DNA from: Escherichia coli O157:H7
GTDB taxonomy: Bacteria; Pseudomonadota; Gammaproteobacteria; Enterobacterales; Enterobacteriaceae
Reading direction: 5' to 3' (one strand)
Assembly: GCF_013167455.1 (NCBI RefSeq)
Contig: NZ_CP038328.1
Length of the DNA stretch: 64,000 nt
Shown here: one piece after another, positions 18,758 through 51,330 of the stretch
Position numbering within the stretch: the first letter of the stretch is position 1
Layout of the letters: each line of letters starts with the position of its first letter
Made by a program: the position numbers and the translations under genes
The notes under the pieces: generated by a model
What the model was told of the DNA's origin: nothing
Seen by the model: the letters and a program-made list of their open reading frames with translations, nothing else
The model's database searches: none

Positions 18758-19795
18758 ATGAACGATGAAATGAAAGGTAAAAGCGGCAAGGTCAAAGTGA
18801 TGTATGTCCGCAGTGATGATGATTCTGATAAACGTACCCACAACCCGCGTACCGGGAAAGGGGGCGGGCGTCCAGGAAAATCTCGTGCTGACGGTGGCCG
18901 TCGCCCCGCCCGCGATGACAAACAGAGTCAGCCCCGTGACCGCAAGTGGGAAGATTCGCCGTGGCGCACGGTTTCCCGCGCGCCGGGTGATGAGACGCCG
19001 GAAAAGGCCGATCACGGTGGCATCAGTGGTAAAAGTTTTATTGATCCGGAAGTGTTGCGTCGTCAGCGTGCGGAAGAAACCCGCGTCTACGGCGAAAACG
19101 CCTGTCAGGCACTGTTCCAGAGCCGTCCGGAAGCGATTGTTCGCGCCTGGTTTATCCAGAGTGTAACGCCGCGTTTTAAAGAAGCCTTGCGCTGGATGGC
19201 AGCAAACCGCAAAGCGTACCATGTGGTAGATGAAGCGGAATTGACAAAAGCGTCAGGCACGGAACATCACGGTGGCGTTTGCTTCCTGATCAAAAAGCGT
19301 AATGGCACAACCGTGCAGCAGTGGGTAAGCCAGGCAGGCGCGCAGGATTGTGTTCTGGCACTGGAAAACGAATCTAACCCGCATAACCTGGGTGGCATGA
19401 TGCGCAGCTGCGCGCACTTTGGCGTGAAAGGTGTTGTGGTGCAGGATGCGGCACTGCTGGAGTCGGGGGCGGCTATCCGTACCGCAGAAGGCGGCGCAGA
19501 GCACGTTCAGCCGATTACTGGCGACAACATTGTTAACGTGCTGGATGATTTCCGTCAGGCGGGTTACACCGTAGTGACAACTTCCAGCGAGCAGGGTAAA
19601 CCGCTGTTCAAAACCAGTCTGCCAGCGAAAATGGTACTGGTGCTGGGTCAGGAATATGAAGGGTTACCGGATGCCGCACGCGATCCGAACGATCTGCGCG
19701 TGAAGATTGATGGTACTGGCAACGTTGCCGGGCTGAATATCTCTGTCGCAACCGGCGTTCTTCTTGGCGAATGGTGGCGTCAGAATAAAGCCTGA
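18758..19795 (+). CDS. yfiF: SpoU/TrmH-family RNA 2'-O-methyltransferase with basic N-terminal extension
   Basis: 345 aa from ATG 18758 ([14 protein letters not shown]...); Lys/Arg/Gly-rich N-terminus, SpoU methylase C-terminal domain. Confidence 0.85.
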
Positions 19796-19842
19796 TAAAT
19801 CAGCCGGGTGGCAACTCTGCCATCCGGCATTTTCCCGCAAAT

Positions 19843-20532
19843 TTACTCACTCTCTGCCGGTAATACTGGCATCCAGTCAATCGGCGTCTCGCCATGTTGT
19901 TCCAGCCACTGATTTGCCAGCACAAAATGGTTGCAGCCAAAGAATCCACGATGAGCCGAAAGCGGCGACGGATGCGGTGCTTTCAGTACATGATGGCGTT
20001 GCTTATCTATAATCGCCCCTTTCTTTTGCGCATGCGATCCCCACAACAAAAACACCACGCCTTCGCGATGCTGGTTAATCAGGCTGATCACTTTATCGGT
20101 GAAGGTTTCCCAGCCGAGGCTGGCGTGGGAATGCGCCTGACCTGCGCGTACCGTCAACACAGTATTGAGTAGCAGAACGCCCTGACGCGCCCAGCTTTCA
20201 AGATAACCATGATTAGGGCGGGTGAAGCCCGGAATAGTATTTTCCAGCTCTTTATACATATTCAGCAGTGACGGAGGAGTGGCGATTCCGGGGCGAACGG
20301 AAAATGCCAGCCCATGCGCCTGTCCCGGTCCGTGATAAGGATCCTGGCCGAGAATCACCACTTTAACGTCACCCAACTCGGTAAAGCGGAACGCGTTAAA
20401 GACATCTTTTTGTGGTGGATAGATAGTGACGCCGGACTGCCGCTCGCTGGCGACGGTCTGAAGGGTATTAAGAAAATAGGGTTGCTGCTTCTCTTCAGCC
20501 AGCACGTCATGCCAGGTTAATTCGTTAGCCAT
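19843..20532 (-). CDS. ung: Uracil-DNA glycosylase
   Basis: 229 aa; [11 protein letters not shown]...; GQDPYH catalytic motif. Confidence 0.95.
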
Positions 20533-20662
20533 CTCGCTCTCCTGCGAATCTTCAATCCGCCTAGCTTAACTGCTTCTTTCTACAGAACAAAATCATGCTC
20601 ATTTTTTAGACTTAAACGAGTGCAAAAAAATGTAAATTGGTAAAATTTCACACCCGCATAAG

Positions 20663-20729
20663 TTGATGTAAAACAATAAAATCTATTTGCGACCACACTT
20701 GATGTGTGGTTTTTATTGATTTAAATCAA
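20663..20729 (+). promoter_or_regulatory. Two FNR-type sites upstream of grcA
   Basis: ttgatgtaaaacaa (20663..20676) and ttgatttaaatcaa (20716..20729) match TTGAT-N4-ATCAA; centres about 53 bp apart. Confidence 0.5.
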
Positions 20730-20836
20730 AGATTCAAGGGTGTTTGAGGAGTATATATACACTCAAGCAACAATGGTTTTACCAATTGGCCGCGACAGGC
20801 TGAACAAATCAAATAATTTTGCCGGGGAGGCATCAC

Positions 20837-21220
20837 ATGATTACAGGTATCCAGATTACTAAAGCCGCTAACGACGATCTGCTGAACTCTTTCTGGCTGC
20901 TGGACAGCGAAAAAGGCGAAGCGCGTTGCATCGTTGCGAAAGCAGGTTATGCAGAAGACGAAGTGGTTGCAGTAAGCAAACTGGGTGACATTGAGTACCG
21001 TGAAGTTCCAGTAGAAGTGAAACCAGAAGTTCGCGTTGAAGGTGGTCAGCACCTGAACGTTAACGTTCTGCGTCGTGAAACTCTGGAAGATGCAGTTAAG
21101 CATCCGGAAAAATATCCGCAGCTGACCATCCGTGTATCCGGTTATGCAGTTCGCTTTAACTCTCTGACTCCGGAACAGCAGCGCGACGTTATCGCTCGTA
21201 CCTTTACTGAAAGCCTGTAA
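20837..21220 (+). CDS. grcA: Autonomous glycyl radical cofactor (stress-induced alternate pyruvate formate-lyase subunit)
   Basis: 127 aa from ATG 20837 ([16 protein letters not shown]...); C-terminal RVSGYAV glycyl-radical motif. Confidence 0.95.
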
Positions 21221-21240
21221 GGCTTAAGTAGCATGTTACT

Positions 21241-21275
21241 AAGCGGAAGAGGGCGACCTCTTCCGCTTTTTTTCA
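21241..21275. terminator. Bidirectional terminator between grcA and eamB
   Basis: agcggaagag...ctcttccgct hairpin followed by tttttttc. Confidence 0.65.
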
Positions 21276-21863
21276 TTAATAGAAAATGCGTACCGCGCAA
21301 TAGATCAGCAGCAGCGCCAGCACGATATTTAACTGGCGACCATACTGGCGAAACAATCGCTGAAACAGATGCCCCGCCAGCGCCCAGCACACATTACCAA
21401 ACGTCCCAATCATTGCCAGCAAAACGCTGACGCCAACTATCCAGCTTAACGCCTGTGTTTGCGGCAGAACAAATGTCGACAGTGCCGTAACACCGTACAA
21501 AATGATTTTGACGTTCACAAACTGCAAAGCAAAGCTGGCCCAAAAACTGATTGGTTTTGTCTGAAGCCCGTCTTCCTTTGTTGGACTGGTAGCGATTTTC
21601 CACGCCAGCCAGACAATATATGCCGCCCCCGCCCAACTCAACAGATGCACAGCTGCCGGGTCGATAACAGCCAGTGAAAACGAAATGCCCGCACACAGCA
21701 ACATGACGATTAAAAATCCCAGACTCATCCCTGCCAGCACGCGGGTACTCTGATGAAATCCGTGCGTTGTGGCTGAGCTAAGGGCGAGAATATTGTTCGG
21801 TCCTGGCGTCATGGCGGTAATCAGGGTGTAAGTCCAAAAAGCACTTAAAAGGGTCGGTGTCAC
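21276..21863 (-). CDS. eamB: Cysteine/O-acetylserine exporter (RhtB/LysE family)
   Basis: 195 aa, six hydrophobic segments; first codon is GTG (MTPTLLSAFWTYTLITA...). Confidence 0.85.
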   Translation of the reverse strand: MTPTLLSAFWTYTLITAMTPGPNNILALSSATTHGFHQSTRVLAGMSLGFLIVMLLCAGISFSLAVIDPAAVHLLSWAGAAYIVWLAWKIATSPTKEDGLQTKPISFWASFALQFVNVKIILYGVTALSTFVLPQTQALSWIVGVSVLLAMIGTFGNVCWALAGHLFQRLFRQYGRQLNIVLALLLIYCAVRIFY

Positions 21864-21965
21864 TTGTTATCTCCTCTGTTTTGGTAGACAGTACCCGACA
21901 CAGAATATTTAAAAAAATGAATGTTTTTACATTCTAAATTCGATATTTTCGATAGGTTTGGGGTT

Positions 21966-22847
21966 ATGGATCTGCGCCGTTTTATTACGCTTAAAACCGT
22001 GGTGGAAGAGGGTTCCTTTTTGCGAGCTTCGCAAAAATTGTGCTGTACACAATCGACGGTGACTTTTCATATTCAGCAGCTTGAGCAGGAGTTCTCGGTA
22101 CAGTTATTTGAGAAAATTGGCCGACGGATGTGCCTCACTCGCGAAGGTAAAAAGCTGCTGCCGCACATTTATGAACTCACCAGAGTGATGGATACCCTTC
22201 GTGAGGCTGCCAAAAAGGAGTCGGATCCGGACGGGGAACTACGCGTTGTTTCGGGCGAAACGTTGCTCTCTTACCGAATGCCGCAGGTGTTGCAGCGTTT
22301 TCGGCAACGCGCCCCAAAAGTGCGTTTATCGTTGCAGTCTCTGAACTGTTACGTGATCCGTGATGCGCTATTGAATGATGAGGCCGATGTCGGGGTTTTT
22401 TATCGCGTAGGGAATGATGATGCCCTGAACCGACGAGAATTGGGTGAGCAATCGCTGGTGCTGGTAGCTTCACCGCAAATTGCAGATGTCGATTTTACTG
22501 AGCCGGGAAGACATAACGCCTGTAGCTTTATTATCAACGAACCGCAATGTGTATTCCGGCAGATATTTGAGAGCACGCTGCGCCAGCGGCGGATCACGGT
22601 GGAAAACACCATTGAGCTGTTAAGCATTGAAAGTATCAAACGTTGTGTCGCGGCGAATATCGGTGTCAGTTACTTGCCCCGCTTTGCGGTGGAAAAAGAG
22701 CTTGAGAGCGGAGAATTAATTGAATTGCCTTTTGGCGAACACTCGCAGACCATTACGGCAATGTGCGCTCACCATGCCGGAAAAGCGGTTAGCCCGGCGA
22801 TGCACACTTTTATTCAGTGTGTTGAAGATTGTTTTTTGCCGGGATAA
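21966..22847 (+). CDS. yfiE: LysR-family transcriptional regulator
   Basis: 293 aa from ATG 21966 (MDLRRFITLKTVVEEGSFLRASQKL...); N-terminal wHTH, LysR substrate-binding domain; divergent from eamB. Confidence 0.8.
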   Translation: MDLRRFITLKTVVEEGSFLRASQKLCCTQSTVTFHIQQLEQEFSVQLFEKIGRRMCLTREGKKLLPHIYELTRVMDTLREAAKKESDPDGELRVVSGETLLSYRMPQVLQRFRQRAPKVRLSLQSLNCYVIRDALLNDEADVGVFYRVGNDDALNRRELGEQSLVLVASPQIADVDFTEPGRHNACSFIINEPQCVFRQIFESTLRQRRITVENTIELLSIESIKRCVAANIGVSYLPRFAVEKELESGELIELPFGEHSQTITAMCAHHAGKAVSPAMHTFIQCVEDCFLPG

Positions 22848-51302: not shown

Positions 51303-51330
51303 TCTTAATTGATGTATCTCAAATGCATCT
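51303..51330 (-). promoter_or_regulatory. NsrR-type operator overlapping the hmp promoter
   Basis: Minus strand reads agatgcatttgagatacatcaattaaga, containing an inverted repeat of NsrR-box type (AAGATGCATTT...AAATACATCTT-like), directly upstream of hmp. Confidence 0.55.

Follow-up and report, generated by a model that had tools for sequence, protein, structure and literature searches.

The paired FNR boxes upstream of grcA in Escherichia coli O157:H7 form the well-studied yfiD promoter

Described tandem-site promoters and the O157:H7 grcA locus

The closest described system is the yfiD (grcA) promoter of E. coli K-12 (Green 1998; Marshall 2001; Wyborn 2002). As reported in later papers, Green 1998 and Marshall 2001 found that FNR bound at -40.5 activates yfiD, that FNR bound at -93.5 down-regulates it despite occupancy of the proximal site, and that full anaerobiosis leaves the wild-type promoter less active than microaerobic conditions do. 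In an independent 2023 study carried out under strict anaerobiosis, the wild-type yfiD promoter was weak, and variants with a mutated or missing distal box ranked with the strongest promoters in that comparison. The yfiD promoter has also been used elsewhere as an oxygen-responsive promoter, and its product, GrcA, has a published function as a spare part for oxygen-damaged pyruvate formate-lyase.

Two further series of promoters provide a framework for comparison. In the synthetic tandem-FNR promoters of Barnard, Green and Busby 2003, as summarized in PMC11264516, activation comes from an FNR dimer located at about -41.5, whereas an upstream dimer represses transcription if placed between -85 and -95, a range that includes the natural yfiD site at -93.5. 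Unlike yfiD, these promoters are engineered and melR-derived. In the tandem-CRP CC(-n)CC(-61.5) series (PMC3445967), which concerns a related regulator family, the upstream dimer enhances or represses according to its position: a site at -93.5 enhances, and a site at -122.5 represses via the alpha C-terminal domain, whereas suppression of yfiD by the upstream FNR reportedly proceeds without that domain (PMC3445967).

The orthologous grcA genes of Pasteurellaceae offer a natural comparison. Several carry two upstream FNR-type boxes, with a distance of 42–44 bp between them as opposed to 53 bp in E. coli, and their predicted core promoter combines a conserved TTGAAA -35 with a TGnTAAAAT extended -10. 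They lack the PdhR-box block found in E. coli, and TGTTAA (ArcA-like) repeats occur further upstream. We saw this layout in loci L045, L055, L059, L064, L069, L076, and L081, approximately 85–140 bp upstream of the ATG.

The window analyzed here is a 64-kb (64,000-nucleotide) stretch of E. coli O157:H7 DNA, in which a 304-bp intergenic region separates ung (19843-20532, minus strand) from grcA. The GrcA protein matched the NCBIfam equivalog model TIGR04365 over its full length with 234 bits (cut-off, 170), in agreement with the RefSeq annotation; the terminator of grcA itself lies at 21241-21268 and is followed by eamB and yfiE. The intergenic region was 100% identical to that of O157 genomes and a single copy of it was carried by 5425 of the 5426 complete E. 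coli genomes.

Published K-12 coordinates (x, in U00096.2) were converted to window positions as 20837 - (x - 2714471), a relation that was checked against the K-12 record. Only two of the 304 bases differed from K-12 MG1655, at 20684 (T vs C) and 20696 (C vs T); both fall in the spacer between the FNR boxes and none inside either box, and the boxes, -10, start site, PdhR box, ArcA site, and 5'UTR are identical; the window contains the same locus as that studied in K-12. Seven Escherichia sequences were also compared, namely E. albertii and six E. coli chosen along the identity ranking. Across this set, no base varied in either box, the -10, the PdhR box, or the leader; polymorphisms clustered in the spacer and in the stretch separating the proximal box from the -10, the spacer being the most polymorphic part of the intergenic region within E. 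coli. The features of the region are as follows (window coordinates).

20663-20676, unstranded: distal FNR box (FNR II), TTGATGTAAAACAA; centre 20669.5 = -93.5; one mismatch to TTGAT-N4-ATCAA
20677-20715, unstranded: inter-box spacer of 39 bp, holding the box centres 53 bp apart
20691-20714, plus strand: terminator-like hairpin in the spacer, GACCACAC TTGAT GTGTGGTT plus a T-run, from the terminator scan
20716-20729, unstranded: proximal FNR box (FNR I), TTGATTTAAATCAA; centre 20722.5 = -40.5; perfect TTGAT-N4-ATCAA, overlapping the -35 region
20752-20757, plus strand: putative -10 region, TATATA; TATA at 20752-20755 invariant in the 30-genus alignment
20753-20784 (-10 to +22; 2714524-2714555), minus strand: predicted three-repeat ArcA site, TGGTAAAACCATTGTTGCTTGAGTGTATATAT, from the Park 2013 supplementary tables, with an ArcA ChIP peak
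20763 (U00096.2 2714545), plus strand: transcription start (+1) of the literature, derived from the -10/+22 limits of the ArcA site in Park 2013 and the -40.5 of Myers 2013
20771-20787 (+9 to +25), unstranded: PdhR operator, CAATGGTTTTACCAATT, the grcA/ung box of Anzai 2020 Table 1
20786-20803 (mRNA positions of about +24 to +41), plus strand: 5'UTR stem-loop, TTGGCC GCGACA GGCTGA, from per-sequence folding z-scores
20826-20830, plus strand: Shine-Dalgarno sequence GGAGG; GGAG invariant in the 30-genus alignment
20837-21220, plus strand: grcA (yfiD), autonomous glycyl-radical cofactor, from the ORF, RefSeq annotation, and TIGR04365; the ATG begins at 20837, not 20838

The box pair, its start site, and its conservation

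The first-pass annotation had placed two TTGAT-N4-ATCAA-like sites at 20663..20676 and 20716..20729, approximately 53 bp apart upstream of grcA. Direct reading of the sequence confirmed both positions exactly, and the box centres are 53 bp apart. The proximal box was the sole perfect match to TTGAT-N4-ATCAA in the 64-kb window. When up to one mismatch was allowed, seven sites were observed in the window against 2.04 expected from shuffled sequences, and none of 100 shuffles got to seven.

To score the boxes, we used a symmetric FNR matrix of our own, built from 61 other ChIP-bound sites at ChIP-seq peaks (Myers 2013 Table S6) with the two yfiD sites left out. With 21.35 bits out of a maximum of 21.92, the proximal box ranked first in the 64 kb; the distal box scored 16.13 bits and ranked third. 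The pair of FNR-type boxes upstream of grcA is thus real, and the matrix scan that had been suggested as a check of the annotation came out in its favor, with both boxes also passing the published threshold given below. Further strong matches to the FNR matrix were present elsewhere in the window, at 51309-51322 (TTGATGTATCTCAA, 16.99 bits) and 1227-1240 (TTGACTTTCCTCAA, 14.15 bits). The former is the predicted glyA/hmp intergenic site and the latter the rluD/bamD site; both are included in Myers 2013 Table S6, where they are marked as unbound in ChIP-seq.

The boxes correspond to sites already catalogued in K-12. In the rows of Myers 2013 Table S6 that we examined, TTGATTTAAATCAA is listed at 2714579 with a PatSer score of 17.25 (ln p -16.63), the top score among those rows, and TTGTTTTACATCAA is listed at 2714632 with a score of 13.87 (ln p -12.33), the threshold of the genome-wide matrix being ln p -10.75. 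These two sites map exactly onto 20716-20729 and 20663-20676, respectively. Both are marked at an FNR ChIP-seq peak (2714605/2714607 in K-12), the resolution of which is too coarse to separate sites 53 bp apart. The yfiD entry of the main table of Myers 2013 describes the gene as directly FNR-activated with a site at -40.5, and three datasets list yfiD as FNR-activated. IHF ChIP-chip enrichment was also flagged over both FNR boxes (20663-20729) by Myers 2013; the IHF consensus WATCAANNNNTTR had zero matches in 20600-20840.

Relative to the transcription start of the literature at 20763, the box centres take the published positions of yfiD FNR I (-40.5) and FNR II (-93.5), so that the mapped start site fits the box positions noted in the annotation. 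A sigma-70 ChIP peak at 2714546 corresponds to approximately 20762 in the window. The base at the start site is T, which is unusual. From the position of the start site, TATATA would be the -10 hexamer, and in 62 of 63 loci (see below) 22 nt separated the proximal box from the TATA. A generic sigma-70 consensus scan of 20400-21400 returned no -35/-10 pair, as would be expected of an activator-dependent class II promoter that lacks a -35, and the result is not evidence against a promoter. The arrangement is that of a class II FNR-activated promoter, with a box near -41.5 of the start, an appropriately spaced -10, and no -35, and the second box 53 bp upstream, at -93.5, makes it a tandem-FNR layout of the yfiD type.

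To examine the conservation of this layout, 80 grcA loci were gathered with one genome per species, of which 65, including the window, were from Enterobacterales. Under the first pairing rule, the boxes were 53 bp apart in 58 of the 65 Enterobacterales loci and 52 bp apart in four; under a rule allowing only 52- or 53-bp pairs, a pair was found in 63 of the 65, the box pair being missing in two Pantoea loci. Among the 63 loci, the proximal box was perfect in 41, and its TTGA and TCAA cores were invariant in all. The distal box was perfect in none (0/63), and in 57 the consensus T at position 11 was replaced by A. Over the range of genera that runs from Escherichia to Yersinia and Hafnia, the core sequences did not vary.

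The distances flanking the pair behaved differently from those within it. The distal box was 56 to 146 bp from the conserved block proximal to ung, and the proximal box was 102 to 159 bp from the ATG. Because the internal distances are fixed while those on either side shift by tens of base pairs, the distal box, the 53-bp interval, the proximal box, the 22-nt interval, and the -10 constitute a rigid module that is tied to grcA and not to ung. A distance of 53 bp is approximately five helical turns, which would place the two boxes on the same face of the DNA.

Other conserved elements were visible in the same alignments. A TGn extended -10 was present in many other genera of the 30-genus alignment, and E. 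coli was without it. A block common to many genera was located at approximately 20617-20650 (columns ~178-200 of alignment A1), approximately 43 bp upstream of the distal box, with the consensus GTTGAAAATTTACAAAAA. In a few species it scored as a third FNR-like box (e.g., TTGATAAAAAACAA in Pseudescherichia), and it was degenerate in E. coli; the block may bind ArcA or Fis.

Further regulatory sites and RNA hairpins in the intergenic region

Two additional regulators have sites around and downstream of the start. Among the rows of Anzai 2020 Table 1 that were examined, the grcA/ung gSELEX peak was the second strongest, and its box is given as AATTGGTaaaACCAtTg (12/14) with its centre at 2714529, corresponding to window position 20779. 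The operator CAATGGTTTTACCAATT agrees with the PdhR box pattern (A)ATTGGTnnnACCAAT(T), and binding is documented by the published gSELEX. PdhR represses yfiD, and pyruvate relieves this repression. ArcA reportedly interferes with FNR and thereby raises anaerobic expression; in the Park 2013 table entries for this site, the ArcA effect is scored as negative, with a positive effect attributed to Wyborn 2002. The PdhR/ArcA block AACAATGGTTTTACCAA was nearly invariant across genera in the 30-genus alignment.

The region also contains two potential RNA hairpins. The first, in the spacer between the FNR boxes (20691-20714), had an RNA folding energy of -12.3 kcal/mol (z = -4.3), and the spacers of 57 taxa had a mean folding z of -1.25 compared with -0.18 for a control segment, a tendency to dyad symmetry shared by other genera. 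The hairpin was weakened in K-12, HS, AF39, and E. albertii. At 20696, the O157-type C forms a perfect stem pair, whereas the K-12 base makes this a G-U/mismatch position. No mapped 3' end was present at this hairpin, for grcA or nearby coordinates, among the Term-seq entries examined (PMC7815308). An extended -10 (TGGTAAAAT, 20638-20646, plus strand) was considered as a promoter feeding the spacer hairpin and was set aside, being confined to Escherichia in the alignment.

The second hairpin, the 5'UTR stem-loop at 20786-20803, directly follows the PdhR box. Its mean z was -3.1, with z < -2 in 45 of 53 Enterobacterales loci, and it was kept as a structure formed by many different complementary stems. 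RNAalifold returned no structure for this hairpin, the variable-length loops having been aligned by MAFFT without gaps, and per-sequence folding z-scores were used in its place. An Rfam scan of 19700-22000 (E <= 1) identified zero RNA families. A processed 5' end in the yfiD leader was seen by Green 1998, according to the account in a later paper, and the 5'UTR stem-loop may be related to it.

We consider it unlikely that either the spacer hairpin or the 5'UTR stem-loop is a functional element, at the RNA or DNA level, that has yet to be described. If this were the case, the spacer hairpin could act as an insulating terminator that shields the FNR-controlled promoter from upstream read-through, and the leader hairpin could control the stability or processing of the grcA mRNA.

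Roles of the two boxes

The first-pass annotation had described a dual-site promoter and had linked it to anaerobic and acid induction of grcA. The dual-site promoter is borne out by the published FNR I and FNR II sites, and the two-FNR-site grcA promoter is already known, a textbook case that was rediscovered here from the sequence. The proposed function stood in part: the proximal box is an activating site of the FNR type, but the distal box down-regulates, and the link to acid found no support. Acid induction of yfiD is documented in the literature; no assignment of it to the FNR boxes was found in the later literature and supplementary tables on the yfiD promoter.

The model implied by that annotation is one in which both boxes act positively, with class I and class II sites forming a synergistic dual activator that gives stronger anaerobic and acid induction. 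Tandem CRP sites often act synergistically, including with the upstream site at -93.5 (PMC3445967), and both boxes here score above the FNR matrix thresholds. The published behavior of the promoter is nevertheless opposite, since the -93.5 site of yfiD is called down-regulating in several papers, a promoter with the distal site mutated or deleted is much stronger anaerobically than the wild type, and FNR sites at this distance repress in synthetic promoters. Co-activation would also hardly explain why the distal box is conserved in a suboptimal form. We therefore regard it as very improbable that both boxes are positive.

The distal box might instead serve the divergent ung promoter. It lies in the shared ung-grcA intergenic region, approximately 137 bp from the ung start codon, and the ChIP tables name the peak yfiD/ung. 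Against this, the distal box stays at a fixed distance from the proximal box of grcA but not from the ung-proximal block, and in the yfiD-related passages of the list of FNR-activated operons, yfiD alone is named and not ung. A role for the distal box at ung rather than grcA thus seems even more remote. As for the ung promoter itself, TAGCTTAAC (20561-20569, and approximately 20581-20586; minus strand) was nearly invariant across Enterobacterales, approximately 30 bp upstream of the ung start. Read on the minus strand, this block contains TAAGCT with TTGTTC 16 nt upstream, and the two are probably the ung -10 and -35.

In sequences simulated with a first-order Markov model, 0.15 sites per 64-kb window scored at or above the distal box, and two such sites within 120 bp occurred in none of 300 simulations. 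A reading of both boxes as CRP sites or as fortuitous matches, as the relatedness of the CRP and FNR motifs and the larger number of chance TTGAT/ATCAA matches in AT-rich intergenic DNA might suggest, can practically be dismissed, since both carry the FNR-type TTGA core and not the GTGA of CRP, no simulated window contained such a pair, the cores are invariant over the range of genera given above, and an FNR ChIP-seq peak covers the boxes.

The reading we hold with high confidence is that this is the well-studied E. coli grcA (yfiD) promoter, in which proximal FNR activates, distal FNR damps, and PdhR and ArcA add further inputs. At low oxygen, dimeric [4Fe-4S] FNR occupies the perfect box at -40.5 and activates RNA polymerase in the class II manner; the promoter lacks a -35 and has a -10 (putatively TATATA, 20752-20757). 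A second FNR dimer on the weaker box at -93.5, five helical turns upstream, damps this activation. The conserved suboptimality of the distal box suggests a tuned occupancy, in which low affinity would set the onset of damping. If the affinities of the boxes are ordered in this way, the distal box would fill only when active FNR is abundant, which would explain why expression peaks under microaerobic conditions, when pyruvate formate-lyase suffers oxygen damage and the GrcA spare part is needed. PdhR (+9 to +25) and ArcA (-10 to +22) add pyruvate and redox inputs to this response.

The grcA promoter is among the best-characterized FNR promoters, and its recovery here serves as a positive control for spotting regulatory architecture from sequence. 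For the Enterobacterales, the rigidity of the module together with the ever-imperfect distal box provides a small confirmation of the published model: this is the pattern expected if the low affinity of the distal box sets the oxygen level at which grcA expression is damped.
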